NCBI GenBank assembly: GCA_010202845.1
Contig: CP047921.1
Location: forward strand, 780,001-812,000
Length of the DNA: 32,000 nucleotides
From: Candidatus Saccharibacteria bacterium oral taxon 488
Lineage (GTDB): Bacteria; Patescibacteriota; Saccharimonadia; Saccharimonadales; Saccharimonadaceae
Reading direction: 5' to 3'
Shown here: positions 6,638-31,815 of the stretch, in pieces
How positions within the stretch are numbered: the stretch's first letter is position 1
Layout: every line of letters begins with the position of its first letter
The notes under the pieces: model-generated
Told to the model about the DNA's origin: nothing
Database searches by the model: none
The model's input: the letters and a program-made list of their open reading frames with translations, nothing else
Translations under genes and position numbers: made by a program

Positions 6638-6654
6638 ATAAGCACGTCTTGCCC

Positions 6655-6684: not shown

Positions 6685-6706
6685 TTAGCATATGTATTCA
6701 AGCACC

Positions 6707-13732: not shown

Positions 13733-13738
13733 ATTCTT

Positions 13739-13790: not shown

Positions 13791-13918
13791 GTTGCTATTA
13801 CAACGTCCATTCACTCTATTGACACGGCACCCGCCCCATCACAGATAGCTCACCCCACCAAACCGCCACGACCAGTAGCCCACCTCGCCAGAATACAGAC
13901 TATTATTCAATTTTAGCG

Positions 13919-13924
13919 TATAAT
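13919..13924 (+). promoter_or_regulatory. -10 hexamer TATAAT, 6 nt upstream of the ATG at 13931 (leaderless-type)
   Basis: Sequence is gcgTATAAT-aggttc-ATG. Confidence 0.45.
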
Positions 13925-13930
13925 AGGTTC

Positions 13931-14539
13931 ATGGCACAGTTTTGCCGGGTATACCGTAAACAGCGATCGGTTAAGTCAGTCCTGTTGGGAATTGGCAAAA
14001 TTCTCAGCTTGCCACAATACTTACTGCTAGCAGTTGTTTTATCGTTGCTGTTTGCACTCATTATTTTCTTTGCCATCAACGCTAATTTTTATGGCCCGCT
14101 GATGATGTCGCGACTGCCAATACTGGACAAGGTTGCCCTTTTGGGAACCATGTTTATTGACATATTCAAACAAGCTTTCACCTCGCCAAACGGTGCACTA
14201 TTGCTCATGGTGTCAATCCTCCAGGGTCTGTCGATTACCGTCGTCATTTTCACTGCCAAGAAAAATAAGCGTAGTGAACAGTCTGTCACTAGACAGGTCG
14301 GGCTTAGCGGCTTGGCCTCCGTAGCTACCGCTATCGGTTTGGGCTGCGTTCCCTGCGGCACGTCACTCATCCTGCCGCTCGTTGCCGTGTTCTTCTCAGG
14401 CGCCGCCGCAGCCACTGCCGCCACTGTCGCCAGCACCCTCGTTCTGATCTTAGCGCTACTTCTGAGCCTCTTTTCACTCTACAAATCTGGACAAATCGCC
14501 TTTATGTATACAGAATTAGCAAAACAGGGGGAAGTATGA
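13931..14539 (+). CDS. Integral membrane protein with an intramembrane CVPC motif (unknown family)
   Basis: About 4 predicted TM helices. The only Cys pair (GLGCVPCGTS) sits in TM3. The stop overlaps the ATG of the DsbA-like gene (ATGA at 14536-14539). Confidence 0.7.
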   Translation: MAQFCRVYRKQRSVKSVLLGIGKILSLPQYLLLAVVLSLLFALIIFFAINANFYGPLMMSRLPILDKVALLGTMFIDIFKQAFTSPNGALLLMVSILQGLSITVVIFTAKKNKRSEQSVTRQVGLSGLASVATAIGLGCVPCGTSLILPLVAVFFSGAAAATAATVASTLVLILALLLSLFSLYKSGQIAFMYTELAKQGEV

Positions 14540-15252
14540 ATCGACAAAAAACAGCCGGCATAGCGCTCATTTGGGTCATTTTAGGAATTATGATCGCAGG
14601 CATTGTAGCGCTATTTATCTATGGCATTATTAATCGCCCGCCAAATCGCCACATTGGTGACGGCAAGCCGTGGAATGAAAAAATGTCGCAAGGCTCTAGC
14701 GAAGCCAAGCACGTGTTCGTCGATTACACTGATTATTTTTGTTCGTTTTGTGCCGAAGTCGAAGCGGCCACCAGCACCAATTTTTTCAAGAATGACTATA
14801 TCAAATCAGGCAAAGTTCGTTATGAACACCGCGTAGTCACGCTGCTCAAGGAGGTCACTAACAACACCGAATCTGGCGCCCACGCTGCGTTCTGTGCCGC
14901 CGACCAAGACAAATATTGGCAATATACCCACGACATCGTGCCGCGCATCAAACGTGATTATTTTGATAAGGGAATTGGCGTAAAAAACGTCGCCACACCG
15001 CAAAAAATTCCACCACTACCGTTAGAATATTTCCTAACTTCTGCCAAGAGTGTCGGCATGGACGAGGCAAAATTTGCTGATTGTATGACTAAGAAACCGC
15101 ACCAAAATGAGATTGAGAATAATACCAAGAAAGCCCTCTCGCTTGGCGTGAGCGGCCTGCCATACATGGTAGTCAATGACTATGTCGCCAGTGGATTTAT
15201 GGGCGGCGAAAATGGGCTGAAGGCAATTTTGAAAGCCGGCGGAGCGGACTGA
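14536..15252 (+). CDS. DsbA-family thiol:disulfide oxidoreductase, membrane anchored
   Basis: N-terminal TM helix, active site FCSFC, and a cis-Pro loop GVSGLPYMVV. Confidence 0.85.
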   Translation: MNRQKTAGIALIWVILGIMIAGIVALFIYGIINRPPNRHIGDGKPWNEKMSQGSSEAKHVFVDYTDYFCSFCAEVEAATSTNFFKNDYIKSGKVRYEHRVVTLLKEVTNNTESGAHAAFCAADQDKYWQYTHDIVPRIKRDYFDKGIGVKNVATPQKIPPLPLEYFLTSAKSVGMDEAKFADCMTKKPHQNEIENNTKKALSLGVSGLPYMVVNDYVASGFMGGENGLKAILKAGGAD

Positions 15253-16974: not shown

Positions 16975-19900
16975 TTAATCCAACAAACTCGCTCCGCCAG
17001 CGTCATACGACGCGCGCTTATGACTCCACTCGTTACCATAGCGCTTGGCCTGCTCCAATACCATGTCAGTTGCCAACGCCTGCTGGTCTGGCGGGTAGCC
17101 ATATTTTGCCAAAGTCTTTTTGACGTTAACTTTCAGTTTTGCCTGAACATTCCTGCGCTCCGCCCAGTCAATCGTCGCATCACGACGAACTTGCTCTAGT
17201 AACACTTTTGCGATATCACGCAGCTGCGCGTCACCCAATACTTCACGAGCACTACTATTTTCAACCAGCGCATCATAAAAAATAATCTCATCCTCGCTTA
17301 GACCATCAACTGTTCCATTCTCAATAGTCTGGCGAATTTTCTGTCCGATGTTGATTAATTCCTCAATCACCTGCGCTGCCTCGATTGTCCCATTTCTATA
17401 ACGTGTCAAGGCTTGATTAAGCAAGTCAGAGAACTTGGTATCCTTGGCATAATTTCTCGAAAATCGTAGTTTAATTTCATCAGTTAAAAGTTTCTGCAGT
17501 GCTTCCACCGCCAAATTCTTGCGCTCCATATGACGAATCTCTGCCAAAAACTCATCGCTCAAGATCGACAGTTCCGGCTTTTCTAATCCCGCCGCCTCAA
17601 ACACATCAACCACACCCACTGGCGCAATCGCTTTGTCGACAATTTGTTTCAGCGCGCTTCGGTACTCAGCATCAGTCACAACTGTCGAGCTCGACACTTT
17701 CTCCAGCCGAGCTTTCACCGCCTGAAATAGCGCCACTTCTTCGCGGATTTCTAGCGCCTCGGGTCTCGGCATAGCCAGCGCAAAGGCCTTACTCAGTTCC
17801 AAAACATGCTGCTTCAACCGCTTCTCACCGTCTTCCAACCCCAAAATATATTCCTCGGCATCCAAAATGATTTGTAGCTGCTGGTTGGTCGGTGCGGTAA
17901 AATATCGCCGATAGTCAAAGTTGCCAAACAAATCGTGCACTACCTCATAGCGCATCTGCATCTGCGCCACCGCCTCAGCAATATCAAGCTGCGGTGCACC
18001 CTGTCCGCCACTTTGCGTATAGTCAGAGATAGCATCGCGCAGCGCCCCCGCCACACCCAGATAGTCAACCACCAAACCACCAGTTTTACCCGGAAACACT
18101 CGGTTGACTCGTGCAATTGCCTGCATCAAATTATGGCCCTTCAGTGGTTTATCCAGATACATGGTGTGCATATTCGGCACATCAAATCCCGTCAGCCACA
18201 TGTCACACACAATCACCAATTCCAGCGGATCATTTGGATCTTTGATACGCTTTTCGATCGCCTTTACCCGTTGTTTATTACGAATATGCGGCTGCAAGTG
18301 GTCAGGGTCACTAGCGCTACCGGTGATAATCACCTTGATCGCGCCGTGTGCGTCATCATCACTATGCCAATCTGGTCGATACGCCACAATTTTTTCATAC
18401 AAATCCGCCGCAATACCGCGGCTCATCGTCACGATCATACCTTTACCACTCAGTACATCTTGCCGAGCCTCAAAGTGCTGAATAATGTCCAAAGCGATAG
18501 TATTCAGCCGCTCGCTATTACCGACGATGGCTTCTTTTTGTGCATACTCGGCCTTCAACGCATCCTGACGACTCAGTTCTTCGCCCTCCAGCAAATCATC
18601 AACTTCCTTATCCAGCCACTGCCGCGTTACCTCGTCCATATTCAAATCAACCAGCCGACTCTCATAATAAATCGGTACCGTTGCGCCATCTTTCACCGCC
18701 TGCTCGACGTCATAAATATCGATATAGTCGCCAAACACTGCTGGCGTTGACTTATCATCCGTTTCAATCGGCGTACCCGTAAAGCCAATATAGCTCGCAC
18801 CCGGCAAGGCATCACGCATATATTTGGCATAACCATATACTAGCTGGACGTCGCTAGCTCGAACATGCGCCTTCAAACCATATTGGCTACGATGCGCCTC
18901 ATCTGCCATCACGATAACATTGCGTCGATCGGTCAAAATTGGCAATTTATCCTCGTCATCCTCAGGCGAGAATTTTTGGATTGTTGTAAAGATAATCCCA
19001 CCTGCTTCGCGCTGCAACAGCTTCCTGAGTTCACTCCGTGAATTAGCTTGCTTCGGATCTTCCCCCAGGAGCTCGCGACAGGCGCTAAACGTACCGAATA
19101 ATTGACCATCAAGATCATTGCGGTCAGTCACCACCACGATGGTCGGGTTATGCAAATCGCGCGATTTCATCAGCTTGCCAGTATAAAACACCATACTCAA
19201 GCTCTTGCCCGACCCTTGCGTATGCCAGACTACGCCAGCCCGCTGGTCGCCACGTTCACCGCTGGCTACTAGCGTCCGATCCAGTGCCTTATTCACTACC
19301 CAGTACTGATGATAAGCAGCAACTTTCTTGATCAATTTGTCACCATCACTACGCTCAAATACGATAAAATTCTGCACCATATCCAGCAAGCGCTCAGGCG
19401 TGCACGCACCACGCAGCAGCACTTCCAGCATCGGCACATTGCCAACTTCTTTTTCGCCATCAATCGTTTTCCAAGGCATCATTCGCTCCAGCGGGCTAGT
19501 GATCGTACCCATCTCCGCCTCTAGCCCATCACTGGTGACACACAGCTCATTGAACCGAAATAGGTCACTAATCTCGCGCTTGTACGTCTGGATTTGCTGA
19601 TACGCTGTCGCCAAATCGGCCTTCGTATCAGCCGCATTTTTTAGTTCAATCACCACCAGCGGCAGCCCATTTACAAACAGTACAATGTCCGGCCGGCGAT
19701 TATAATCGCCCTGCAGAACCGTCAGCTGATTGACCGCCGCAAAATCGTTGTTTTTTGGCGAGGTAAAATCAACCACCCGCACAATATCGTGCTTAATCTC
19801 GCCGCTCGATGTGCGATATTGCACCGGCACGCCCGCCACTAGCAGTTGATGAAAATCGTGATTATTCTCAACTAAGCTCGGTTTACTAATCTGCGTCAAC

Positions 19901-20106
19901 CGCCGCATCGCCTCCTTCAAGGCTGATTCTGGAATGTGCGGATTGAGCCGCGCCAAAGCACTATATAGACGCCCAAGCAATACCATCTGCCGCAACTCAC
20001 GCTCAGCCGCAGCACCGTCCGGACCAATGTCCGGTCCGTACAAAATCTGCCAGCCGATATTAGCCAGGATATCAAGCGCGTGTTGTTCGATTTGAGATTC
20101 GGTCAT
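16975..20106 (-). CDS. hsdR: Type I restriction endonuclease subunit R
   Basis: N-terminal PD-(D/E)xK (RPDIVLFVNGLPLVVIELKNA) and SF2 helicase motifs (HTQGSGKS, MADEAHRSQ). 1043 aa. Confidence 0.95.
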   Translation of the reverse strand: MTESQIEQHALDILANIGWQILYGPDIGPDGAAAERELRQMVLLGRLYSALARLNPHIPESALKEAMRRLTQISKPSLVENNHDFHQLLVAGVPVQYRTSSGEIKHDIVRVVDFTSPKNNDFAAVNQLTVLQGDYNRRPDIVLFVNGLPLVVIELKNAADTKADLATAYQQIQTYKREISDLFRFNELCVTSDGLEAEMGTITSPLERMMPWKTIDGEKEVGNVPMLEVLLRGACTPERLLDMVQNFIVFERSDGDKLIKKVAAYHQYWVVNKALDRTLVASGERGDQRAGVVWHTQGSGKSLSMVFYTGKLMKSRDLHNPTIVVVTDRNDLDGQLFGTFSACRELLGEDPKQANSRSELRKLLQREAGGIIFTTIQKFSPEDDEDKLPILTDRRNVIVMADEAHRSQYGLKAHVRASDVQLVYGYAKYMRDALPGASYIGFTGTPIETDDKSTPAVFGDYIDIYDVEQAVKDGATVPIYYESRLVDLNMDEVTRQWLDKEVDDLLEGEELSRQDALKAEYAQKEAIVGNSERLNTIALDIIQHFEARQDVLSGKGMIVTMSRGIAADLYEKIVAYRPDWHSDDDAHGAIKVIITGSASDPDHLQPHIRNKQRVKAIEKRIKDPNDPLELVIVCDMWLTGFDVPNMHTMYLDKPLKGHNLMQAIARVNRVFPGKTGGLVVDYLGVAGALRDAISDYTQSGGQGAPQLDIAEAVAQMQMRYEVVHDLFGNFDYRRYFTAPTNQQLQIILDAEEYILGLEDGEKRLKQHVLELSKAFALAMPRPEALEIREEVALFQAVKARLEKVSSSTVVTDAEYRSALKQIVDKAIAPVGVVDVFEAAGLEKPELSILSDEFLAEIRHMERKNLAVEALQKLLTDEIKLRFSRNYAKDTKFSDLLNQALTRYRNGTIEAAQVIEELINIGQKIRQTIENGTVDGLSEDEIIFYDALVENSSAREVLGDAQLRDIAKVLLEQVRRDATIDWAERRNVQAKLKVNVKKTLAKYGYPPDQQALATDMVLEQAKRYGNEWSHKRASYDAGGASLLD

Positions 20107-20264
20107 AAGTATTTATATTTTATCAAATAAAAGTATATTTTTGCTTAATTTCAAATTACCCATTGACATATCTCATAATATATATTAATTTGGAGATGGT
20201 AGGTTGATAGGAATATCTAGCCGTCCACTCAGCGTATGGCGGGACCCGTATGGGAACTTACCTC

Positions 20265-20294
20265 AAAAGAGCATCTGGTATCAGGTGCTTTTTT
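20265..20294. terminator. Hairpin terminator between the DUF3800 gene and hsdR (better formed on the + strand)
   Basis: Plus-strand RNA reads GCATCTG-gtat-CAGGTGC (one G.U) followed by TTTTTT. The minus-strand RNA has a C.A mismatch and is followed by TCTTTTG. It lies 1 nt from the DUF3800 stop. Confidence 0.6.
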
Positions 20295-20295
20295 G

Positions 20296-21162
20296 TTATT
20301 CTGACTTACACCATTTAATTTTTCCAATCTCTGGTAATTTTATTAATCCATAACCTCTAACCTGCCGTGTTAATTTGTTGCAATACACATTGTCAGATAT
20401 CTTCTCAAAAAATGGATACATTGGTAAAATTTCCTGATCTGGCTCATCCCATTTATCGCCATAGTCAATGAACTGTCTTAACACATTGTACGCAACCGTA
20501 TCAGCCAACTGTAAAAAATTAGAGTTTTTTGATTCCTCAAATCGGACAGAAACATGACTGTATTTTTTATGAAACGAGCCAAGGTCAATAGTTTTATCAG
20601 CAATCTGCAGTATACTACCCTGATCGCGTTTTTTTGTCTTCACTTGATGATCCATTTGGTCAAATATAATAGTACACTCTCTATTTGGATGCATTTCTAT
20701 ACGATCAAACATCACTTGTGCAGTAATATCAAGAGGACTCTTTGCAGTACGCAAATTTTTATAGTATCTCTTATCTAGCAAAACTGCCTGAATCTGTATA
20801 GCCTCTTTATTTTGGTTAAATATCTCATACCAGAAACCCTCGATGAAGTTCTTTAGTTGACACCTAGTAACCCCAAATGGTTGTATATAGTGCTTTTCCT
20901 GTTTTTGTGGATTACGGAGATTAACTGAACGAATCTCTACATTCTTTGTACCAAACACTTCTATCTTTTTAGCATTTATGATCGGATTTAACTCTGCCAA
21001 TAGATCATGTTCAATATATACACCAGCCAACACAAAATAATTAAGTTCCCAGAATTTACGATTTTGCGATGTCCTAGCAGGTGGCGAGTTTACAAGCGAA
21101 TACTGGTATGGAGTATCCCACTGCTTAGATCCGCTGTCATCAATAAACAAATAGCTACTCAT
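20296..21162 (-). CDS. DUF3800 domain protein
   Basis: N-terminal YLFIDDSGS and C-terminal FLQLADTVAYNV resemble the two conserved DUF3800 motifs as I recall them. AT-rich gene nested in the R-M locus. Confidence 0.6.
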   Translation of the reverse strand: MSSYLFIDDSGSKQWDTPYQYSLVNSPPARTSQNRKFWELNYFVLAGVYIEHDLLAELNPIINAKKIEVFGTKNVEIRSVNLRNPQKQEKHYIQPFGVTRCQLKNFIEGFWYEIFNQNKEAIQIQAVLLDKRYYKNLRTAKSPLDITAQVMFDRIEMHPNRECTIIFDQMDHQVKTKKRDQGSILQIADKTIDLGSFHKKYSHVSVRFEESKNSNFLQLADTVAYNVLRQFIDYGDKWDEPDQEILPMYPFFEKISDNVYCNKLTRQVRGYGLIKLPEIGKIKWCKSE

Positions 21163-21205
21163 AAGTCATCCTGTCAGAATCTGCGCTTTATACATCTCTT
21201 TATAT

Positions 21206-22030
21206 TTAATCTTTATTTTCATCTATAATCATATACTCATCGTGACTGTTTGTACCAGCAGAAGCTTCTTTATTACTATACTCAGAAATTACTTTATCCA
21301 ACTCCATAAGCTCCTTGCCAAAAATACCAAAAGCAAACGCTGGCGCAAGTTCCTGTGAATAACTTACAACAAGGCCAGATGGCAAAACTACAGAGAGTCT
21401 GGCTTCAGTAGCGCTGACATGCGAATGTTGGTCTTTTTTTACTTCATTGGTATTTACTGATAAAGAGTTCAGCGTCTCCCCAATACTACAACTCTCTGCA
21501 CGTGACTGGTCTATAGTGTCATTGATATTATCAAACATTAAAACGCCGTTTTTTAAAACACCCACAAACTCAGCCGATTTCCTAAAATTAGCCACAGCAG
21601 TGCCAGCAGCATTCTCCTGAATTCCATAATTTCGAATTAGAATACTTTCGAGCATTTGTGGTAAAGATTTTCCACCATATTCTGCCATTAGCTTCTGGTA
21701 TAAAGAGGGTTTATTAAATGCCTCTACAAGAACTTGTGCACGCTCTTCTTCACTTACATAGTGAAAGAATCTTTGTGCTAAATCCGACAGGCTATATACA
21801 TTACCATTACGATCAAGCATACCAAAGTGGACACACGAAGCAATCTTAGATCCAGAGCTTCCCGTTACTCCCTTATAGCCCAAAGCCACAGCCATATGAT
21901 CCCTAGCATAAGGTCCATCACCAAGCTTCTCTTTCAAGGTCTTCGTCGCTTCAATTACTTCTTCCAGTGTAAAAGCGGGGTACGAAGCACTTCTTTTACG
22001 ATTTTTCTTAATTACTATATTATCTTTCAT
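21206..22030 (-). CDS. Hypothetical protein (274 aa); the N-terminal half may be helical/wHTH-like
   Basis: Long ORF with SD AAGGAG 6 nt upstream. I recognise no family. It sits 43 nt upstream of the DUF3800 gene. Confidence 0.6.
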   Translation of the reverse strand: MKDNIVIKKNRKRSASYPAFTLEEVIEATKTLKEKLGDGPYARDHMAVALGYKGVTGSSGSKIASCVHFGMLDRNGNVYSLSDLAQRFFHYVSEEERAQVLVEAFNKPSLYQKLMAEYGGKSLPQMLESILIRNYGIQENAAGTAVANFRKSAEFVGVLKNGVLMFDNINDTIDQSRAESCSIGETLNSLSVNTNEVKKDQHSHVSATEARLSVVLPSGLVVSYSQELAPAFAFGIFGKELMELDKVISEYSNKEASAGTNSHDEYMIIDENKD

Positions 22031-22094
22031 TTTGTCTCCTTTATTTACTGATACTAGTTTATCAGCTATTCAGGCTCTTATCAAGTATATATCT

Positions 22095-22111
22095 GTTGTA
22101 TTATATACAAC
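22095..22111. promoter_or_regulatory. Perfect 17-bp palindrome GTTGTAT-tat-ATACAAC containing a TATAAT-like core, upstream of the 274-aa gene
   Basis: Located in the 169-nt hsdS/274-aa intergenic region. The minus strand reads GTTGTATATAATACAAC. Confidence 0.45.
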
Positions 22112-22199
22112 TATAGTTTTACGGCTTATATCCCCTTGGGTATACCTCGACTCAGCCGTAGAGATTCTTTCGCCTATAGGGAGTGGCTCTTTAGTTCTT

Positions 22200-23285
22200 T
22201 CAAACTAGTTTTGGCAAAAGCAAATCACGAATGTTAGATAAATAATCTATTTGTTTCTTGTTTTTATGTATCATATCAAATAATGGTCGCACTCTCTGCT
22301 CGAAATCATTAAACTCGCAATCTGATAAATCAGCAATCTCCAAAAGCTCTATGTGCTTTGGATAAATATGCGGCTGACCAGAGCCAGTTTGCATATCGTA
22401 TATTTCTTTTTGCTTATTCTTGAGGAACAAATAATAGGTATAAACATATTTGGTAATTGTTGAGTCAATATACGAAGAGTCTGCCGACCAAACTGGTTCA
22501 CCCCAGACAGATACAAAACCAGCATTTGCTCCGGATGCACTTATCGTGATAACTGGCGCGGTCGTATTTGCTTCATTGTGAAATCCGGCTGGCTTCAGTC
22601 CACCGCTAATCACCGGCGTGTCACCACAAATCATATCTCTAGCTTGCAAACTTCTACCTCTTTTTGGATGAAACTTTTTCCCTAAAGGTATGGTCCGTAT
22701 ATTACCATTACTCTGCTTAGTTTTATCAACAAAATAATGACGAAAGAGAGCTTGACCGAGCTGCTCGAGGGTTTCGTTCATGCGGCGATTGAGCTCGATT
22801 TTTTCATCAAGACTGCCGAGGATATTGGCAATTTTCTTTTGGGTTTCTAAATTTGGTATACTGACACTGACAACATCAAAAGTGCTACGAGTTATCGTAT
22901 TAAATACACCACCGTGTGACTGCCTTCTTAGATCATTAACAGATTTTTTCAATAGATAATAAAGAAAATTTTGATCAACCCCTGCTTTTGCCCTAATTCC
23001 ATAGCAAGATTGATTAAAAGCCATTGGTCGCCTCAGTTGAGCCAATTCGCCCACAGTACCGCGTGCAGATATGATTATATCTCCTTTGTTTAGCAGTTTC
23101 GTACTAGAGCTCTCCAGCCCAAGACTAGTGATTGCTTTTTCGGTTTGATCCACCCAGCGTCTGTCACCCCCAAAATCAACCACGGACAGCCACGGTATGT
23201 CACCACTCCAAAACTCGGGTTTGTTTGTCTTCGGGGTGCCGCCACCTATGAGCTCGATGATATCACTTAAAACAGCTGTTCTCAT
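22200..23285 (-). CDS. hsdS: Type I R-M specificity subunit
   Basis: TRD start IGGGTPKTNKPEFWSGDIPWLS, central conserved helix LDEKIELNRRMNETLEQLGQALFRHYF, a second TRD, and a C-terminal LLPKLV. The ATG overlaps the stop of the GHKL gene (TAATG). Confidence 0.9.
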   Translation of the reverse strand: MRTAVLSDIIELIGGGTPKTNKPEFWSGDIPWLSVVDFGGDRRWVDQTEKAITSLGLESSSTKLLNKGDIIISARGTVGELAQLRRPMAFNQSCYGIRAKAGVDQNFLYYLLKKSVNDLRRQSHGGVFNTITRSTFDVVSVSIPNLETQKKIANILGSLDEKIELNRRMNETLEQLGQALFRHYFVDKTKQSNGNIRTIPLGKKFHPKRGRSLQARDMICGDTPVISGGLKPAGFHNEANTTAPVITISASGANAGFVSVWGEPVWSADSSYIDSTITKYVYTYYLFLKNKQKEIYDMQTGSGQPHIYPKHIELLEIADLSDCEFNDFEQRVRPLFDMIHKNKKQIDYLSNIRDLLLPKLV

Positions 23286-25282
23286 TATCCTTCTAACCCC
23301 AATTTCTCAAAGAATATTCGGTGACGCACGACTGCATCATTTAGCAGTTTTTCCCACGTTACGAATTCAATTCTGAGATTAATATTGTCCTGTATTAAGA
23401 ACCACCCTTTATTGTCTGGCATTGATTTTAAGTTTTTCTCTTCAATCAACCATTTTTCAACCTTATTATCAACATCCGCTACTATATAACCATAGAAGGG
23501 TGTTGTGGGTGAGATATGAATCCTACTTCCTTTTGGTGTCTTATAGTCGCCATTTCTCATGCTGTTAACATAACGAATTATTTGTTGTATAGGGTCTTCT
23601 TTAGAAGACGCATCTACAAAGTCATTTCGACCAGGTCGTTTAAATTCAAAGATACTTACTGGATTAGAAGCCTCCGAGCCGTCTCTATACGCAACATTAT
23701 AATGAAATGCTGCGATATCTGGACGGTCCTTATTTTCATTAAATATGTTTTTATCCGAACTGAGATACTGAGTAAGATTTAACCCTTCGTCTATAATCCA
23801 CAAATTATGGCCATCATATATCGTATCATTTGAATCTGATTTTGTAGGAAATATTATATCATGAACTGCCTTTTCCGTATCGTATTCTCCCAAATCATTC
23901 CATTCCAAAGTCTTTTTAAATAATTCCAGGATAGATTTACGAAACGCTATATATTGTGCTAAATCACTATAGCTTGCGTCTTTTACTTCTCTAATCAGCT
24001 TTTTAGCATTCGACTGTGCTTCTATATAATTCCTGTTTCTACTAGTCAACTGAGAGATGTTTCTCTTTATCTCTAAGTCACGTTCATACTTTGCCTTATG
24101 TAGAATTAACTCTATGTCATCCTGGGTAGGATTTGCCTTTATTGCTTCAAAATCTATGTCGTCAATATATGGCTTGTACCAAATGTTACTTTGGGTATAT
24201 TTCTCAAACTTCTCTCTTTTTACTTTTGACCTTAGACTAACCACACCTTCAAATTCCTTTTTTGCGATTTCTGCAATAGCCTTTTCAATATCCTCTCCCG
24301 ATACTGGATATAGTGGGTCATGCTTTTCACCAAAGTTAAAACTGTCACGTTCTACCGTAACATTATCCTCCAGATATTCTCCTTGAACGTAGAATCTTAT
24401 TATGTAGTTACGAGATCTCTTCTCTCCATCAACCAGTACGTCTTCGGTAAAGTCAGAGTAGAAATCTGGAATATACACATCCAAGCTCTTCTCGGTAACT
24501 GCTTGGTTTCGTGCAGTTAGAACAATCTTGCTCTTTTGGTTTCGAGGCTTAAGGATTTTAAACATTTTATATCTTAGTTCTATACCGTTAACAATAAAAG
24601 TATCACTTTTCTTGAGCTGAATTAGAGAATCATCTCTTGTGCCAATTTGCTCATTTAGGATTATTGGGATATCTAGCGCATCATCTTCAAATACAATCTG
24701 CGGGCATGTATATGATGGGTCGGAAAAATAACTAAGGATCTGTTCCAGAATGCGATGTGAGATAATTTCTGGATCTTTGTCAAGTTTTACACCCTTAATG
24801 TTTAAAAGTCGAAGTATCGTACCAGTCTCTGACGCGCTAGGTGAATTACTAACCTTATCATTAACTATAACGTCATATTGCTTACCAAAATCGAATGAAC
24901 GATGTTTGTATTTGTTATCTTCAATAAACGTGCTTTCTATGTGTACGTCGTTAAAATGCCGCAGATAAAAAAATCGACCAAAACCCTTTCCTCCTATCGA
25001 CCTTTTAAATTGGCTATATATGGTGTCGAAAGAATCGCGATTTTCTTTATTAAAACCGATACCATTATCGGAGACTTCCACAGAAGTTACATCTGCCAAC
25101 TTATCACCGTCCGTTGATACAAATGGCGGATTCCTAATAATCCGAATACGGATTTCCCCATCATTTCGGCCTGACTTATCTATAGCATCAATAGCATTAG
25201 TTATTGCCTCTGTAATAGGAGTATACGGGGTGGACTTAGCCCTAATATTATTAATAACTCCTTGGATAAATACTTTACTCAT
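23285..25282 (-). CDS. GHKL (Bergerat-fold) ATPase fused to a C-terminal PD-(D/E)xK nuclease-like region
   Basis: N-box EAITNAIDA (aa 25-33), G1 box DNGIGF (aa 72-77) and a lid GGKGFGRF (aa 97-104). C-terminal RPDIAAF...(23 aa)...SIFEFKRPG...DPIQQIIRY (aa 520-570) fits the PD...ExK...Q pattern. Confidence 0.7.
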   Translation of the reverse strand: MSKVFIQGVINNIRAKSTPYTPITEAITNAIDAIDKSGRNDGEIRIRIIRNPPFVSTDGDKLADVTSVEVSDNGIGFNKENRDSFDTIYSQFKRSIGGKGFGRFFYLRHFNDVHIESTFIEDNKYKHRSFDFGKQYDVIVNDKVSNSPSASETGTILRLLNIKGVKLDKDPEIISHRILEQILSYFSDPSYTCPQIVFEDDALDIPIILNEQIGTRDDSLIQLKKSDTFIVNGIELRYKMFKILKPRNQKSKIVLTARNQAVTEKSLDVYIPDFYSDFTEDVLVDGEKRSRNYIIRFYVQGEYLEDNVTVERDSFNFGEKHDPLYPVSGEDIEKAIAEIAKKEFEGVVSLRSKVKREKFEKYTQSNIWYKPYIDDIDFEAIKANPTQDDIELILHKAKYERDLEIKRNISQLTSRNRNYIEAQSNAKKLIREVKDASYSDLAQYIAFRKSILELFKKTLEWNDLGEYDTEKAVHDIIFPTKSDSNDTIYDGHNLWIIDEGLNLTQYLSSDKNIFNENKDRPDIAAFHYNVAYRDGSEASNPVSIFEFKRPGRNDFVDASSKEDPIQQIIRYVNSMRNGDYKTPKGSRIHISPTTPFYGYIVADVDNKVEKWLIEEKNLKSMPDNKGWFLIQDNINLRIEFVTWEKLLNDAVVRHRIFFEKLGLEG

Positions 25283-25318
25283 TATAAATGCTCCCAGCCC
25301 TATTTTTTACTATCTCAT

Positions 25319-26332
25319 TCATCTCTTCCCCTCAACCCTCTTCTGCACAGCCCTCAACTCCTCAAGATATTGCTGCTCTATACTACTCAGCTCTTGATTA
25401 CGCATACGTTCTTTGTATGATTCATACTCTTTGGCAACTTTGGTGAGCATGGTTTTGTGTGATATTTTGCCCGGGTTATCAAGGACGCCCTTACCGTAGG
25501 TAGCCGCAAATTTGTCAACTTCACGCACCCAATCAGCCATGCGCATTGGTTCATGATTGATAGCCTTGAGCTCAGCGAGATCAAAAAAGGCACTCACGAG
25601 GCGGTTGAGTATGCCAAGTTCATCAGCCATCAAATAGTTTTTAGCAATTTGCGCTTCACTTTTGGTAGGTTGCTGACCGCGAAACGTCGTGAGCCCTAAG
25701 AATGGCTTGTCAGAATCAACCCTGGAGTAAATAACCTCAGCGGCAGTCAACATATTAACAGCGTAGTGCAGCTTATTCTGAACTATCTGGAAAAACTCTA
25801 TTTGCTCTTTGGAGCTCGGATTATAATCTTGACTGGTGGCGAATAAATCTAACACTTGCCGATACAATATTTTTTCACTACTACGAATATCTCGAATTCG
25901 CTCAAGTAGCTCTTTCCAATAATTTCCGCCACTATTTTCTTTAAGACGCTCATCGTCCATGACAAAGCCCTTAGTAATATATTCACGCAGTCTTTCGGTA
26001 GCCCAGATACGAAAATTCGTTGCTATATTTGACTTCACGCGGTAACCAAGCGAGATGATTAAGTCAAGATTATAATGTTTTGTCGTGTACTTTTTACCGT
26101 CTGCAGCAGTTAGTAAGAAATCCTTACATACTGAAGCCTCATTTAGCTCGCCCTCATCAAAAATATTCTTAATATGCATGGTAATATTTGGTCGCGAGGT
26201 ATCAAAAAGGTTGGCTAACTGAGCTTGAGTAAGCCATATTGTTTCACCTTGGAACCTTACATTAATCTGCGGCTTACAATCATCGCCAACATACACCACC
26301 ATCTCGCCGTTTGGATTATCGCCGCTTATCAT
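25319..26332 (-). CDS. rhuM: RhuM family protein
   Basis: [41 protein letters not shown]...[10 protein letters not shown]...[12 protein letters not shown] matches the RhuM family. The ATG overlaps the hsdM stop (ATGA at 26329-26332). Confidence 0.85.
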
Positions 26333-27816
26333 TTGATTTCTTTCCCTATTTTGGCAAGATTTTCTTTTATTTTTACCTCTAGCTCACGGCTCTTCGCAAA
26401 CTGCCCTTCAAGCTCAGCCGTCAACCTAGCAAATTTCTCGACAAACAGTTCATCGTCTTCCTCGGCCTCTTCGACACCAACGTAACGACCGGGTGTCAGC
26501 ACGTAATCATGCTGCTTGATTTCCCCTAGTGCAGCAACTTTGCAAAAACCTGGCTGGTCAGTGTAATCCGCGCTGGCGGTTTTATAATCATGATATGTCT
26601 TCGCTACCCTGGCGATATCTTCCGCAGTCAGTTCGCGGTTACGACGGGTGACCATTTTGCCCAAATTACGCCCATCAATGAACAGCACTTTGCCGTGACG
26701 ATTGGCACGATCACGCGACACAAACCACAGACAGCATGGTATAGCCACATTAAAAAACAACTGGCTCGGCAGCGTGACGATAGCGTCAACCATATCATTA
26801 AGAACCAGCTGTTTGCGGATGTCACCTTCACCGCCAGTTTGACTGCTCATACTCCCGTTTGCCAGCACAAAGCCTGCAGTACCGCGCGGGCTCAAATGGT
26901 GAATCATATGTTGAATCCACGCAAAGTTAGCGTTACCCTTTGGTGGCAGACCATACTTCCAGCGCGGGTCAGCCTGCAAGTGCTCTTGACCCCAATCGCT
27001 GATGTTAAATGGCGGATTGGCCAAGATATAATCAGCTTTCAGGTCGAGAAGCTGGTCATCCACCAGGGTGTCGCCGCGTTTGATATTCGCGTCAATTCCC
27101 CGAATTGCCATATTCATTTTAGCGAGTCGCCAAGTCGTTTCGTTCAGTTCCTGGCCATACACCGCGATATCGCTAACGCGGCCTGCGTGCTCCTCGACAA
27201 ACTTCTCGCTCCAAACAAACATACCGCCGCTACCGCAACATGGGTCATACACGCGCCCGCTGTATGGCTCAAGCATTTCTACTAGCAATTTCACGATGGA
27301 GCGCGGCGTGTAGAATTCACCGCCATGCTTACCCTCACTGTCAGCAAACATACCCATAAAATATTCGTACACTTGACCAAGCAAGTCTTTGGAACTGGCA
27401 GTGTCGAATTTGATATTGGTAAATAAATCGATAAGTTCACCCAGGCGACGTTTGTCCAGGGCTTCACGAGCATAATTTTTCGGCAAAACACCTTTCAAAC
27501 TTGGATTATCGCGTTCAACTGCTTCCATGGCACTATCGACTAGCACGCCAATTTCTGGCTGCTTGGCGCTCGCCACCAGGTGTTCCCAACGAGCCTCCTT
27601 GGGAATCCAAAAAATATTCTCCGCCAAATACCAATCCCGGTCTTCAGGATCATAATTCTCATCAATCGCTGCCTGATGTCGCACCGAAAACGCATCTGAA
27701 ACATATTTTAGAAAAATCAGCCCCAATACCACATATTTATAATCCGACGAGCTGATATTACCCCGTAGTTTATCCGCCGCAGCCCACAACTGCTTTTCAA
27801 GCTCCCTTGTATTCAT
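26329..27816 (-). CDS. hsdM: Type I R-M N6-adenine DNA methyltransferase subunit
   Basis: HsdM N-terminal domain ([10 protein letters not shown]), AdoMet motif [11 protein letters not shown] and catalytic NPPF. Confidence 0.95.
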
Positions 27817-28498: not shown

Positions 28499-28504
28499 AA
28501 TCTT

Positions 28505-28513
28505 ATTATATCA
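28505..28513 (-). promoter_or_regulatory. Extended -10 TGATATAAT, 6 nt upstream of the radC ATG (leaderless-type)
   Basis: Minus strand reads GAGCTTGATATAAT-AAGATT-ATG. Confidence 0.55.
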
Positions 28514-28524
28514 AGCTCTCGCCA

Positions 28525-28533
28525 TGCTATACT
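28525..28533 (+). promoter_or_regulatory. Extended -10 TGCTATACT, 7 nt upstream of the ATG at 28541 (leaderless-type)
   Basis: Plus strand reads ccaTGCTATACT-agggcca-ATG, back-to-back with the radC -10. Confidence 0.5.
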
Positions 28534-28540
28534 AGGGCCA

Positions 28541-29413
28541 ATGCGACGGCAAACTATTTCCTTTTCTCACAATTCTCACACCATACCGTGCGAAATACTT
28601 TTTACGAGTGATGACATGTCGTTTGATACGATCCTCCTGCTCGGTAGTGGTCAAGTTGAGCACATATTTCACCGGGTAGCCCAAATATGCCCGCCCAACA
28701 TCGCCGTTGTTCAAGGCGCGCCCCACTGGCTTCTTAATGAAGATAATGCCAATGATTTCATGGCAGCCTTCATCAAACAAGCCCTTGACTATTTACTAGC
28801 ACACACCCAAACTCAACAGCTTCATATCATCGCTGAATCACAAGCCGCCCCGTCAACAATCTTTTGTTGTGCACAACCAGAGTATGTACCACGCCTCAGC
28901 CAACTCACCCTCATTCAACCACTTGGACTCACACACAACTATTACCAATCCCACCGACGTGTCATCAAGCTATTCCAGCGGCGTGTAGTAAAAAATATGT
29001 TGCATCAATTCGGATCGCTTCTCACTGACAAATATATGCGGCGCAATTATCGCACTGTCATGAAGCGAGTTAATTTTACTAATATCACAATCCAACGCCA
29101 ATTTGTCCATGGATTATCTGTTAATAGCTTCAGTGATCTTCAGCAGATTCACCATAATCGCCACATTGTTATCATATCGGGGAAGCAGGACGCGTTATTT
29201 CCACCTCGTGTCATAAAACAAAATCTTACCAAACATCAATTACCAATCCCTGTAATCCGCGTACCTCGCATAGCTCACTCATCACTAGCCACGCGTCAAG
29301 GCTATCGGCTGCTCAAAATCGCGCTGGCTTGTCGACCGCGCGCTACACATATTGCCACTACCAACACACCGACCAATCGCGACGCTAATGACGTGTCAGT
29401 CGCACCGGATTGA
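28541..29413 (+). CDS. Alpha/beta-fold hydrolase (putative)
   Basis: Order of elements fits an alpha/beta hydrolase: LLLGSG (oxyanion region), nucleophile elbow IIAESQAA, acid VIISGKQDALFP, and His in RIAHSSL. The ORF-track start at 28331 lies inside radC, so I use the ATG at 28541. The ATG at 28616 is an alternative. Confidence 0.55.
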   Translation: MRRQTISFSHNSHTIPCEILFTSDDMSFDTILLLGSGQVEHIFHRVAQICPPNIAVVQGAPHWLLNEDNANDFMAAFIKQALDYLLAHTQTQQLHIIAESQAAPSTIFCCAQPEYVPRLSQLTLIQPLGLTHNYYQSHRRVIKLFQRRVVKNMLHQFGSLLTDKYMRRNYRTVMKRVNFTNITIQRQFVHGLSVNSFSDLQQIHHNRHIVIISGKQDALFPPRVIKQNLTKHQLPIPVIRVPRIAHSSLATRQGYRLLKIALACRPRATHIATTNTPTNRDANDVSVAPD

Positions 29414-31815
29414 ATTGTCGCCACGGCTTCCTCTTCCGGATTGAGTCGGCTATCATCTGACCATAAGCCCAGCGATGGGTGGTTTTTGACAACCAAGATA
29501 TTGTCACTCACGGTGCTCGTTTCGCTATTATAACCGTAATTATCAACCGCGCCGGCAACCGCCAAATCATTCTGCTCGCCCAGTTCAGACTCTACCGCCT
29601 CGTCCAACTCAGCATCAGGTATTAGCTCAACGGCTGGTGAGGTGGAAGTAACTATCTGCTCCTCTGACTCATAATCATTGGTGATTTCAGGAACTGATAC
29701 CGCCTTAGAATTGTCCAATTGCCCCACGGAATCCATATCAACACCAATCTCGCCGTCTACAGAGAGTTCCAAATCACCAGGTTCTTCACACACCGTAACG
29801 ACTTCTGCCGGCGATATCACCGCGGCTACTTCAGTTAAGGTTAATTCTGATTCCACTCCCGGCAAATCCTGCTTCACAAAAAACACCTCTTCCTCAGCCC
29901 AAATCTTATCTTCACTGCGACCGATGTCCGCGGTGGTGTCAGAGCAATCAAGTTGCCTAAAGACAGGAATTTGCGGCTCGGTCGCATCCGTATCAACCGC
30001 TAATTCATCACCCAATTTCTGTGGCAGATCAACGGCAAGTTGAGTGTCATTTCTATCAACTGCTGTGTGTTTATCTGGTAGATTCGGCGTAATGTCTATC
30101 ATTTCTACAGATGCCGCCACATCAGTTTTATTTGTTGTATTTACCACATCATTCGCTACAAATACATCTGTTTCTACATCATCAATCTTCGGCTGTACCA
30201 AATTATTATCAAAATCGGCACGGTCGCCGATAATCAAAGAGTTCTCGCTACTTTCGACAGACATCTGCTCCTGTGACAATATAGCTTGCGGTGTTCTGCC
30301 AGATTGACCAATAGAATAACTGCCTGGCGATTGGTACGTCTCGTTTTTATCGTATTCCGCCGGCACGCTAGCCGCGACCGTTCGCTCCTGAGATAGCGGC
30401 ACATCGTCTACGTCCGGCGTCAAGTTACCGGGCTGTACATTATCAGCACCGTCAAGAGCTTGGATAGAGCCATCACAACCTGCCACCGTGCCAAGTTCAG
30501 CTTCGCGAGGCTGTGTATTTTGTAGCGGCTTGACATTAGAACCATCAATTGATTCTGCCGCCGGCTTATTCATCTCTGTTGCATCAAATTGCGCTGCCGA
30601 CCGCTGTTCAGAAGCTGACGTGAAGCTGCTTGCTGCCGTTTGTCTCGGTTCAGAATCAGACAGTTTTGGCGCTGCCGCAACAACGTTATTTTCTTTCGGA
30701 TGTTCAATTGATGATGGTTTTATACTTGACGGCGCAGTAGCTTCATCACCATTATATGTATTTTCTACAACACTATCGACGAGTTTATTTTCGCCAGACA
30801 ATAAGTTGGCAGTTTCATTTTTTGGCAAAGTATTATTCTCGTTAGCGGTTTGAGTATCCTCGCTTACCGCTGGCGATGACAGCACAGTTCTCGTTTTCGT
30901 TCGTGTCGGTATGTCTGAAGATTCAAATGCTGGCTGCTGGTTTTCTTTATCTGCTGCACCAGAAATAACATCAAAAGTCTGCTGTTTTATTTCTATCGAC
31001 GGACGATTTTCCTCTGTTGGTTCGGCAAAATACTCCTCGCCAGATGTATTAACGAACGCTCCGCTAACATTTTCTGGCTGGGCTTCTCTAATCTCATCAA
31101 CATTATCAGCGGCATCTTCCGTAGCAACTGTTGGTTCCAAAAACGATTGTTCCGCCTCCTTAATATCCGCAGGTTCGTCTGGAGATTCTGTTGTTTCACT
31201 AGTCGGGATTTCATTGCCTTGATTCGGCGGCGCAACCTGCTCAATTAGTTTATCCGTCTTATCATCGCTTGTTTCAGTGATATCTGCATTTGTTAAATCC
31301 GCCCCGCTATCAGGATTAGCGTAACCCGCCACGACAATGCCGTCATCGTCGTCACTCAACAGATCTCTTAAATACGATTCGCGTTCTGGCGCTGGCTGCA
31401 AATTTTCATTAGCAAAATTGCGCATACGTAAAATCGGACAGTCGTCGCGTGCCGCGCAACTAGCACAGGCGGCGCTCGCCACACCTTGACATATTGCTAC
31501 CCTTCGCTCATCACTCATCCGGTTTTCCGACGAATTAATCTCGCTTTTGCCGGCAAGCGATAACGCGTCAACCGGCGCATCAGGCATATCTTTTAAGTCG
31601 GTGCTGCCATCCATGAAAGTATCAAGCTTTTCTTTGCCGCCAGCCACCGCTACTAAGTCAAGGCCGCTTGCCGCCTCGTCCGTATCAGCATTTACCTCTT
31701 CACCAATGTCGCCAATGCCAGACGAAAAATCCTCACCTCTCAGCGACGAAATGTCAAAACCATCACCGTCAATTCCTGCCGGTGATGATTCTCTTGTAGT
31801 CGCCTCCCCAATCAT
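29302..31815 (-). CDS. Hypothetical 837-aa highly acidic low-complexity protein with an N-proximal 4-Cys motif and a C-terminal hydrophobic anchor
   Basis: Uninterrupted 2.5-kb ORF rich in D/E/S/T/N. C-x7-C-x2-C-x5-C-P at aa 109-127 (nt 31438-31491). C-terminus LVGVLVVAICVA-RGRQ. No signal peptide. The ATG overlaps the upstream stop (ATGA). Confidence 0.7.
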   Translation of the reverse strand: MIGEATTRESSPAGIDGDGFDISSLRGEDFSSGIGDIGEEVNADTDEAASGLDLVAVAGGKEKLDTFMDGSTDLKDMPDAPVDALSLAGKSEINSSENRMSDERRVAICQGVASAACASCAARDDCPILRMRNFANENLQPAPERESYLRDLLSDDDDGIVVAGYANPDSGADLTNADITETSDDKTDKLIEQVAPPNQGNEIPTSETTESPDEPADIKEAEQSFLEPTVATEDAADNVDEIREAQPENVSGAFVNTSGEEYFAEPTEENRPSIEIKQQTFDVISGAADKENQQPAFESSDIPTRTKTRTVLSSPAVSEDTQTANENNTLPKNETANLLSGENKLVDSVVENTYNGDEATAPSSIKPSSIEHPKENNVVAAAPKLSDSEPRQTAASSFTSASEQRSAAQFDATEMNKPAAESIDGSNVKPLQNTQPREAELGTVAGCDGSIQALDGADNVQPGNLTPDVDDVPLSQERTVAASVPAEYDKNETYQSPGSYSIGQSGRTPQAILSQEQMSVESSENSLIIGDRADFDNNLVQPKIDDVETDVFVANDVVNTTNKTDVAASVEMIDITPNLPDKHTAVDRNDTQLAVDLPQKLGDELAVDTDATEPQIPVFRQLDCSDTTADIGRSEDKIWAEEEVFFVKQDLPGVESELTLTEVAAVISPAEVVTVCEEPGDLELSVDGEIGVDMDSVGQLDNSKAVSVPEITNDYESEEQIVTSTSPAVELIPDAELDEAVESELGEQNDLAVAGAVDNYGYNSETSTVSDNILVVKNHPSLGLWSDDSRLNPEEEAVATIQSGATDTSLASRLVGVLVVAICVARGRQASAILSSR

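Follow-up and report, generated by a model that had tools for sequence, protein, structure and literature searches.

What do genes that are not part of a restriction enzyme do inside its operon? The question is raised by a type I restriction-modification (R-M) operon of Candidatus Saccharibacteria bacterium oral taxon 488, contained in a stretch of 32,000 nucleotides (nt) that we analysed at its full length (contig CP047921.1, positions 780,001 to 812,000; hereafter the window). Between hsdM and hsdR, this operon holds the specificity gene hsdS and four genes foreign to R-M: rhuM, a gene for a GHKL ATPase-nuclease, an open reading frame (ORF) of 274 amino acids (aa) and a DUF3800 gene. An earlier note, made from the sequence alone, had likened the nested genes to the anticodon nuclease PrrC, which is embedded in a type I R-M operon and held latent by it.

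Our results suggest that the locus is a type I R-M operon that probably doubles as the two-slot scaffold of a defence island, and that the modules nested in it are autonomous. Patescibacteria, also known as the candidate phyla radiation (CPR), have tiny genomes, mostly without CRISPR, and their phage resistance is an open question. If the proposal is right, oral Saccharibacteria gather a large defence repertoire with a fast turnover in one conserved type I R-M operon, in which near-identical tracts are common to lineages that are about 10% divergent elsewhere.

An R-M operon with fixed ends and a changing interior

The seven minus-strand ORFs were found where the earlier note had placed them and in the order it had given (hsdM, rhuM, GHKL, hsdS, 274-aa ORF, DUF3800, hsdR), as judged from an ORF list and domain scans. 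The coordinates also bore out its two overlaps, of 4 nt between hsdM and rhuM and of 1 nt between GHKL and hsdS. Gaps separate the genes at the remaining junctions; in gene order from hsdM they measure 36, 169, 43 and 189 nt, and the last, between DUF3800 and hsdR, is occupied by a bidirectional terminator and a plus-strand small RNA (sRNA) gene. HsdM matched Pfam N6_Mtase (7e-112) and HsdM_N (2e-26) and PADLOC MTase_I (5e-206); HsdS matched Pfam Methylase_S in two stretches (4e-35) and PADLOC Specificity_I (5e-100, residues 1-360); HsdR matched Pfam HSDR_N, SWI2_SNF2, ResIII, T1R_D3-like and T1RH-like_C, as well as TIGR00348 (1e-180). By their domains, hsdM, hsdS and hsdR are a type I R-M set, with predicted methylation and restriction activity.

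The same locus exists in other Saccharibacteria. An exact-sequence look-up of the GHKL protein had led to oral Saccharibacteria of the Nanosynbacter/Minimicrobia kind. A scan for HsdR, with one genome per GTDB species, gave 66 loci (designated here, like the other loci compared, by L numbers where they have to be told apart), and 64 of these were titled Saccharibacteria, Saccharimonadales, Nanosynbacter, Minimicrobia or TM7. The two exceptions were a Parcubacteria metagenome-assembled genome (MAG) and a Gammaproteobacteria MAG at 37% identity. The synteny radC-hsdM...hsdR-DUF167 was seen in all of the approximately 40 loci in which the flanks were present. Within a close group of about 40 Saccharibacteria species, the HsdM and HsdR proteins are 93-97% identical (93-98% for HsdM alone), while the identity of hsdS between species is only 25-88%. 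Across 43 species-level genomes, hsdM and hsdR are kept and everything between them changes.

For a census of this cargo, the ORFs between hsdM and hsdR were called and clustered in the 54 loci holding both genes. The interval measured 1.7-7.7 kb (median 6.1 kb) and yielded 82 cargo clusters, a count that comes from mechanical ORF calls and may include spurious or split ORFs. Two slots can be defined: slot A, from hsdM to hsdS, and slot B, from hsdS to hsdR, the latter being filled in 54 of 54 loci. Representatives of the clusters matched Hachiman HamB, AbiP2, AbiA, AbiZ, PDC-S53 and PDC-S50/S19. Moreover, the slots carried Shedu SduA_C, PIN_12, KAP NTPases, reverse transcriptases, an HATPase_c_3 protein, a helix-turn-helix (HTH) plus Panacea antitoxin paired with a small protein, an S24 peptidase, a superfamily 1 helicase, Schlafen/AlbA_2, AAA_21 with RloB, OLD-Toprim ATPases, DUF6119 and DUF6161. 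Slot B in particular is elsewhere filled by DUF6119, AbiZ with AAA_21/RloB, AbiP2, Hachiman, Shedu and others. The earlier note had proposed to compare related genomes to see which nested genes vary; in this comparison the nested genes are variable, and they stand at positions where siblings carry bona fide defence systems. Some genes at the locus are decaying inside the hot spot: in L005 DUF6119 is split into two ORFs (13098-14698), and in L009 hsdS is split (6153-7267).

The base composition follows the same pattern. The earlier note had pointed to an AT-rich block at 20107-25318, and quantitative analysis supports it: the block has 37.3% G+C, compared to 50.5% for the rest of the window, and none of 327 windows of 5.2 kb outside the block falls below 47.4%. 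At the codon level, G+C at third positions is 0.31-0.44 in the five nested genes, hsdS included, compared to 0.56 +/- 0.07 in the 21 other ORFs. Outside the block, rhuM is likewise depressed, at 42.4% G+C. The interval from hsdM to hsdR is more AT-rich than both of these genes in 43 of 43 species (38.5% compared to approximately 48% G+C), and the dip is therefore a hallmark of the hot spot and not a peculiarity of the window.

What was exchanged could be delimited. In blastn alignments with nine sibling loci, homology stops on one side exactly at 20107/20108, a single nucleotide ahead of the hsdR ATG, and on the other exactly at 22202, adjacent to the hsdS stop codon (22200-22202). These two breakpoints define a swapped slot-B unit of 2.1 kb (the slot-B cassette of Table 1). 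In addition, a tract of approximately 3.2 kb that reaches from rhuM into hsdS has zero mismatches per 200-nt bin in comparison with L001, L003 and L006, and the bins that flank it have 13-35 mismatches per 200 nt in the same strains. Gene by gene, GHKL is 99.8-100% and hsdS 99.2-99.6% identical at the nucleotide level, compared to 88-97% for hsdM and 89-91% for hsdR, and the strains sharing the tract diverge by 8-12% in radC, hsdM and hsdR. Such an identical tract in divergent flanks marks a recent spread through homologous recombination. In L010 the tract stops in the middle of hsdS, the second half of which is replaced.

The two units assort independently. GHKL is paired with four different slot-B cargoes (DUF6119, AbiZ with RloB, AbiP2 and the DUF3800 unit), and the DUF3800 unit is found together with a non-GHKL slot A in L092, L093 and L095. 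The idea that the AT-rich block had been acquired or exchanged as a cassette, specificity gene included, was right in that the AT-rich genes are exchangeable and move horizontally, and in that hsdS travels with its GHKL neighbour in one tract. The block is not one cassette, however, but at least two independently assorting units, the 274-aa gene, DUF3800 and the sRNA gene forming a separate one. Note that hsdM itself is mosaic: at 26400-27199, in comparison with L003 and L006, tracts of 400-800 nt identical to some siblings lie in sequence that is approximately 10% divergent, a sign that homologous recombination is frequent throughout the locus.

We propose the following scheme. The conserved hsdM, hsdS core and hsdR, together with the flanking radC and DUF167, would serve as anchors that supply homology, and recombination between strains would replace the material lying between them. 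In this strain, slot A carries rhuM, translationally coupled to hsdM, and a predicted ATP-dependent nuclease of the paraMORC3/VcSduA type, translationally coupled to hsdS. Slot B carries a self-contained unit made of a predicted promoter/operator, the gene of the putative 274-aa autorepressor, that of the putative DUF3800 effector, a terminator and a convergent sRNA. The nested modules would add layers of defence or toxins to R-M, and would be neither R-M subunits nor clients of the PrrC kind.

The slot-B module and its small RNA

How self-contained is the unit in slot B? Its first gene, the 274-aa ORF, had no match in Pfam, PADLOC or NCBIfam, and a search of 5.8 billion clusters found only 29 homologues, a tiny family. 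The AlphaFold2 (AF2) model of the protein has a predicted local distance difference test score (pLDDT) above 90 over residues 20-165 and shows tandem winged helices in the N-domain, joined by a disordered linker to a small C-domain; Foldseek with this model found nothing below E = 1e-3, only weak generic winged-helix matches. The gene downstream of family members varies. It is DUF3800 in the window, L066 and L090, a gene for a 129-aa protein in slot B of the type I locus L023 and on a free-standing JGI contig, and a gene for a 309-aa protein in L021; members of the family are also found between housekeeping genes.

Upstream of the 274-aa gene, a CTGATA-N6-TATCAG palindrome (22048-22065, minus strand) overlaps the -10 element of a promoter-like site. 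In 166 loci this palindrome occurs at 8 sites only, all of them directly upstream of genes of the 274-aa family, whatever partner follows. It precedes a different downstream partner in L023 (6207-6224), and it is kept in L090 (761-778) though the surrounding sequence diverges. From the palindrome and the structure model we infer that the 274-aa protein, whose binding to DNA is predicted, is probably an autoregulated transcription factor (an autorepressor) of the slot-B cassette. BrxR and CapW are winged HTH regulators upstream of variable defence genes. The arrangement in slot B is like that of the BrxR/CapW type and of RptR (PMC12255303), with a winged-helix gene in first place, a palindrome over its own promoter and downstream genes that vary. 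Unlike the known regulators of defence islands, the 274-aa protein has no sequence match or significant fold match to any regulator family, and it belongs to a family of just 29.

Two further ideas about this gene were discarded. A 273-aa gene that follows a stand-alone DUF3800 in L091 was rejected as a diverged homologue (hhalign probability 0.1%). A short GCTGAGT similarity between the 5' region of the 274-aa gene and the sRNA loop, which might have pointed to antisense regulation, is not conserved in L090. At the other end of the unit, the segment just upstream of hsdR (20107-20182, minus strand) belongs to the swapped cassette and is conserved with L090 (TTTGATAAAATA). It has a TATAAA box approximately 5 nt before the hsdR ATG, without a Shine-Dalgarno sequence and back to back with the sRNA promoter, which suggests a promoter supplied by the cassette and possibly a leaderless hsdR mRNA.

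The second protein of the unit matched DUF3800 (PF12686) with an E-value of 4.5e-11 and 44.1 bits, compared to a cutoff of 21. Across 34 homologues, D8, D9, D130, D153, E156, D168 and Q218xxD221 are invariant. The subfamily is widespread in Patescibacteria. DUF3800 proteins are predicted to have an RNase H2-like fold, and are reported as the effector of type VII retrons and as a partner of Cas12a2 (PMC7736814, PMC10910872). A search of the PDB by sequence with the window's DUF3800 protein gave nothing meaningful.

The approximately 100 nt past the DUF3800 stop codon are more conserved than the DUF3800 protein. A search with nhmmer and then with a covariance model, over 1.17 Mb in all, identified an sRNA there, which in the window scores 102 bits (E 7e-30). 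Of 77 DUF3800 loci taken from diverse metagenomes, 71 contain it, always just 3' of DUF3800, with copies for example at L090:2531-2640 and L091:7756-7867. The six loci lacking it are contigs that end within DUF3800 or just past it, which brings the count to 71 of 71 assessable loci. In support of this linkage, the covariance model found no sRNA in approximately 45 non-DUF3800 loci (approximately 0.8 Mb).

The consensus is a four-way junction of approximately 75 nt followed by a terminator hairpin with a U-run. The junction is built from an 8-bp closing stem, a hairpin with a GAAA loop, a hairpin with a conserved loop of 12-13 nt (CUCUCAGCGUAUG) and a short hairpin. In the alignment 97.7% of cells are paired and 15 of 20 pairs show compensatory changes; none of 500 shuffles was as good, and register-shifted pairing reached 30-49%. 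The strand was also established. On the strand opposite to the gene there are 36 G-U and 23 other non-Watson-Crick cells, compared to 8 G-U and 51 other on the gene strand, and complete (100%) pairing of the closing stem is reached only by the strand opposite DUF3800. A -10-like box precedes the structure (consensus TGnTATAAT; TATTAAT in the window, 20183-20189), and the minimum free energy structure of the window's single sequence is the same fold, at -38 kcal/mol (z = -3.46). The DUF3800 mRNA and the convergent sRNA have the terminator in common, and its hairpin shows compensatory changes across loci.

Is this a known RNA? Against Rfam 15, the slot-B cassette gave no match at the gathering score and only a chance match (E = 0.39) at a relaxed threshold; for the DUF3800-associated motifs (DUF3800-I, V, IX and others) the window gave none at the gathering score or at E <= 5. 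At the position of the motif in 19 other loci Rfam likewise gave no match, though RF02964 (DUF3800-V) was found elsewhere in L120. The shape of the sRNA resembles a cloverleaf, and a tRNA was considered and dismissed, the only tRNA that ARAGORN reports in the window being tRNA-Pro at 424-500. The sRNA is like the DUF3800-associated RNA motifs I-XI (Weinberg et al. 2017, PMC5737381) in that a structured and highly conserved sRNA, ending in a Rho-independent terminator of its own, accompanies a DUF3800 gene in tight linkage and can lie on the opposite strand. Unlike those motifs, it has a four-way junction, a GAAA tetraloop and a conserved 12-13-nt loop, it has no Rfam 15 match, and its hosts are Patescibacteria. 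By these features it seems to add one more, undescribed member to the enigmatic class of DUF3800-associated RNAs. In L120, the DUF3800-V RNA (RF02964, 63 bits) lies at 1046-1152 on the minus strand and a copy of the new motif in the same contig at 4769-4879, so two classes of DUF3800-type RNA can coexist in one CPR genome.

As in type VII retrons (PMC7736814), DUF3800 would here be an RNase H-like candidate effector in a defence-type system. Unlike in those retrons, there is no adjacent reverse transcriptase: no such domain was detected in the window's nested genes, and the neighbours of DUF3800 in L090 and L091 are also without one. The sRNA may be the functional RNA partner of the DUF3800 nuclease, either as an antitoxin or inhibitor, or as a sensor or guide. 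Our tentative reading, for which we would claim somewhat less than an even chance, is that DUF3800 and the sRNA form an unrecognised two-component RNA-protein module for immunity or of the toxin-antitoxin (TA) type, widespread in Patescibacteria, in which the RNA restrains the nuclease or senses infection. A fact that counts against it is that the link between the sRNA and DUF3800 is one of genomic co-occurrence only. Under this same tentative reading, in oral Saccharibacteria the module gained a winged-helix autorepressor and was slotted into a type I R-M operon; the upstream putative winged-helix regulator and the place inside such an operon set it apart from motifs I-XI and from type VII retrons. 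If true, this would provide the first functional context for a decade-old, unexplained class of DUF3800-associated RNAs. The linkage of an sRNA to DUF3800 among embedded defence genes makes the association of DUF3800 with RNA a testable hypothesis of nuclease-RNA defence or TA action.

Could the contents of the slots instead be selfish? In that case the nested genes would be addiction or TA modules, or decaying mobile cargo in a recombination hot spot, with no antiviral benefit, and the RNA would be a type III-like antitoxin or a 3' stabiliser or terminator. The AT-rich, mosaic interval would fit, as would TA-like pairs (HTH plus Panacea) and disrupted genes (DUF6119 in L005, hsdS in L009) in sibling slots, and the carriage of the GHKL family on integrative and conjugative elements (ICEs) and plasmids. 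We consider this unlikely. All four nested ORFs are intact, their catalytic residues are invariant, and the sibling slots are dominated by families with experimentally established antiphage activity (Hachiman, AbiA, AbiP2, AbiZ, Shedu). As for the RNA, its conserved -10 box, GAAA tetraloop and 12-13-nt loop exceed the needs of a terminator. Moreover, TA behaviour and defence by abortive infection are not mutually exclusive.

The slot-A proteins and their relation to the R-M enzyme

RhuM, the first protein of slot A, matched Pfam Virulence_RhuM over residues 67-313 (2e-100, 335.9 bits) and PADLOC PDC-S05 over residues 7-334 (1e-140, 466 bits). RhuM has been described in R-M operons, where it stands in the place of DOC toxins (Anantharaman et al. 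2013, PMC3710099). The gene is full-length in 17 loci, and in 13 others only its N-terminal part of approximately 115 aa is present, as a separate ORF in slot A (L031, L033, L034, L043, L048, L051, L056, L058, L061, L062, L068, L074 and L080). This short ORF is coupled to hsdM and usually followed by a KAP-family NTPase, and in L023 the RhuM N-domain is fused to Fic/DOC. Judged by its gene contexts, the RhuM N-domain behaves like a shared adaptor module with interchangeable effectors.

The second protein was identified from both of its halves. Its ATPase half matched HATPase_c (9e-8), and across 47 homologues E25, N29, D72xGxG76 and G97-G102 are invariant. In the other half, E470, D522, E546-F-K548 and Q567xxxY571 are invariant in the same homologues. 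The C-terminus has weak profile similarity to the N-terminal PD-(D/E)xK core of HsdR (hhalign P = 3e-4) and a weak Pfam HSDR_N match that spans the motif (E = 0.036). The label of nuclease, a guess in the earlier note, holds up in the light of this invariant E-D-ExK motif and the similarity to the HsdR core. The AF2 model (pLDDT 84) aligned in Foldseek over 400-545 columns to the ATPase modules of TopoVI-B, GyrB 43K, Hsp90/TRAP1, MORC4 and SMCHD1 (E 1e-10 to 1e-7). In this model the predicted layout is an N-terminal ATPase, an S5/transducer-like middle, a helical arm and a C-terminal RecB-like PD-(D/E)xK nuclease.

This layout is that of paraMORC3, an architecture described by Iyer et al. 2008 (PMC2292703), and of VcSduA, a validated single-gene antiphage protein in which E27A and K557A abolish defence; the class also goes by the name of GHKL-type or 'type 1D' Shedu (PMC12137116, bioRxiv 10.1101/2023.08.10.552793). 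As in these proteins, a single polypeptide of approximately 665 aa combines a GHKL ATPase, a clamp or S5-like middle and an E-D-ExK RecB-like nuclease, and the catalytic Glu and Lys stand at nearly the same positions as in VcSduA (E25/K548 here, E27/K557 there). The family is likewise prevalent in Proteobacteria and Bacteroidota and is often, not always, in R-M contexts. Unlike in that class, Pfam calls the ATPase HATPase_c and not HATPase_c_3. Shedu proper was rejected as its identity, since the protein fails the DUF4263/SduA_C hidden Markov model (HMM) tests. By analogy of architecture, we regard it as a paraMORC3-type, VcSduA-like ATPase-nuclease, a candidate distant relative of that class that is negative with Shedu HMMs.

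A profile of the C-terminal 205 residues, run against 1.84 billion representatives, recovered 1792 clusters with the layout of approximately 665 aa. The best 150 profile matches all had this same architecture, with no bridge to Shedu among them, and a PDB sequence search with the C-terminal profile gave nothing meaningful. Five accessions of the GHKL family did not appear in the available part of a supplementary table of VcSduA homologues, which speaks neither for nor against an equivalence with VcSduA. Full-length homologues are abundant, and outside this locus they occur on a CTnDOT-like ICE, on an acidobacterial plasmid, at an ordinary Pseudomonas chromosomal site and, next to a type IIG R-M system, in the genome of another oral CPR bacterium. 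These free-standing occurrences show that the GHKL protein is autonomous. In Bacteroidota (L012-L015) the homologue lies inside the CTnDOT-like conjugative element, flanked by a PRTRC/ThiF-E2 module and by the tra genes, and in Tunturibacter (L016-L017) it lies on a 55-kb plasmid, adjoining ArdC, RepB primase and SSB, which hints at a role of the family in conflicts between elements besides phage defence.

Do the nested proteins take part in restriction itself? The paraMORC might act with HsdR on looped DNA, and RhuM or the 274-aa protein might regulate the hsd genes in the manner of C proteins. Iyer et al. inferred that MORCs and paraMORCs act within R-M systems, and in two other species slot A holds a different GHKL protein (HATPase_c_3, 685 aa) whose C-terminus is distantly homologous (hhalign P = 1.5e-5). 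The slot-B cassette also supplies the sequence immediately upstream of hsdR. Such an accessory role is nevertheless very unlikely. This GHKL gene is present in 4 of 43 species-level loci and hsdM, hsdS and hsdR are intact in all 43, so that GHKL is dispensable for the R-M enzyme. Stand-alone paraMORC3 genes were noted by Iyer et al. themselves, VcSduA works as a single gene, and the palindromic operator lies upstream of the 274-aa gene and not of hsdR or hsdM.

The analogy with PrrC, which the earlier note had drawn, was examined next to these data. It would make one or more nested proteins latent suicide effectors, silenced by HsdMS(R) and released when a phage inhibits R-M. The locus is indeed like prr (EcoprrI/PrrC) in that a type I R-M operon harbours the gene of an effector, and the two share the idea of layered defence. 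Latency would be in keeping with two translational couplings, rhuM with hsdM and GHKL with hsdS, and with the travel of GHKL and hsdS as one identical tract. RhuM-like proteins co-occur with PrrC in R-M operons, for which multilevel defence has been proposed (PMC3710099), and TgvAB protects better in its native R-M context (PMC11411939). We find this reading quite unlikely on several grounds. No nested protein resembles PrrC, and no ABC-ATPase fused to a HEPN anticodon nuclease was found among them (Pfam, PADLOC, NCBIfam). PrrC is almost exclusively embedded in R-M (Payne et al. 2024, bioRxiv 10.1101/2024.01.29.577857), whereas every nested module also occurs free-standing: the GHKL, DUF3800 plus sRNA and 274-aa families are found without R-M neighbours, and approximately 64 of the 77 DUF3800 loci searched for the sRNA (~83%) lack hsd-like neighbours. 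The slot-B unit has its own promoter-like site, operator and terminator, which argues against latency under R-M control. Finally, the co-transfer of GHKL and hsdS is explained by adjacency, because the tract ends inside hsdS in L010.

Weighing the proposed scaffold, precedents and other features

The two-slot scaffold with autonomous modules remains the reading that we prefer, and several points weigh against it besides the mechanical ORF calls of the census. The first set of loci came from an exact-sequence look-up of GHKL and is biased to GHKL carriers. An antiphage function of the nested genes in this organism is our inference; of the four, PADLOC 2.0 matched only RhuM, and as a candidate. 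The equivalence of the GHKL protein to VcSduA is one of architecture and not of demonstrated homology. Its C-terminus matched neither Pfam SduA_C (DUF4263) nor the PADLOC Shedu models, and hhalign with genuine SduA_C domains of sibling loci was not significant (P = 0.14). Moreover, with rhuM translationally coupled to hsdM, and GHKL to hsdS, the expression of both is tied to the R-M genes, which leaves room for co-regulation or cooperation.

That defence genes are embedded in R-M operons is an already documented phenomenon (rlo, RhuM/DOC/PrrC, TgvAB, Shedu). Defence genes have been systematically discovered inside R-M loci by 'guilt by embedding' (Payne et al. 2024, bioRxiv 10.1101/2024.01.29.577857), and 602 Shedu genes are documented inside R-M systems. 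As in those loci, non-R-M genes lie here between hsdM, hsdS and hsdR, the cargo varies between strains, and it comprises known defence systems as well as candidates (RhuM being PDC-S05). The slot between hsdS and hsdR has counterparts in tgvAB of Vibrio cholerae VPI-2 (PMC11411939) and in rloF, one of the rlo genes of the type I loci of Campylobacter jejuni. Unlike in the earlier cases, one orthologous chromosomal locus can be traced here through 43 species-level genomes of a reduced-genome epibiont, with two defined slots, gene-precise breakpoints and approximately 80 cargo families, and the 274-aa, DUF3800 and GHKL proteins are not in PADLOC 2.0. What is new is how large and how precise the Saccharibacteria hot spot is, a candidate paraMORC3-type nuclease that spreads between lineages with an hsdS allele, and a DUF3800-linked sRNA with a putative regulator. 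The locus would offer a ready 'catalogue' for discovery through guilt by embedding, and a landing pad for genetics in naturally transformable epibionts.

Table 1. Features of the R-M locus, with positions in the window
Feature	Position	Strand	Remarks
hsdM	26329-27816	-	Methyltransferase subunit of the type I enzyme; conserved anchor at the 5' end
rhuM	25319-26332	-	PADLOC candidate PDC-S05; toxin-like; first gene of slot A
GHKL ATPase-nuclease, 665 aa	23285-25282	-	HATPase_c at residues 23-102 only (Pfam)
hsdS	22200-23285	-	Specificity subunit; two target-recognition domains
Exchanged recombination tract	22400-25450	unstranded	3' end of rhuM, GHKL and most of hsdS; limits approximate
Slot-B cassette	20108-22201	unstranded	Unit swapped from strain to strain
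Promoter-like site and operator-like palindrome	22048-22084	-	TTGATA-17-TAAACT; promoter scan
274-aa ORF	21206-22030	-	Probable autoregulated winged-helix factor
DUF3800	20296-21162	-	Nuclease with a predicted RNase H-like fold; probable cassette effector
Bidirectional intrinsic terminator	20264-20295	both	Terminator scan; 14-bp hairpin between an A-run and a T-run
sRNA gene	20183-20296	+	Covariance model; convergent with DUF3800
hsdR	16975-20106	-	Restriction/translocase subunit; conserved 3' anchor of the locus

Some minor observations concern the surroundings of the operon. The tRNA-Pro (CGG) gene on the plus strand, the sole tRNA of the window, is far from the locus and is not an obvious integration site. 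In several siblings an XRE-type HTH gene (172-201 aa) lies on the opposite strand between hsdR and DUF167 (L002:17840-18445, L003:17923-18441 and L009:11929-12525); the window and L001 are without it. Finally, a second variable spot is found on the other side of radC, at 28500-31815. In the window it contains an 837-aa ORF (29302-31815), which had no match in Pfam or PADLOC, and an ORF on the opposite strand. At this spot sibling strains (for example L002:3169-6726) carry a GmrSD-like type IV enzyme (PADLOC Orf5/HEC-06, 8e-106) together with an uncharacterised protein of 467 or 803 aa.

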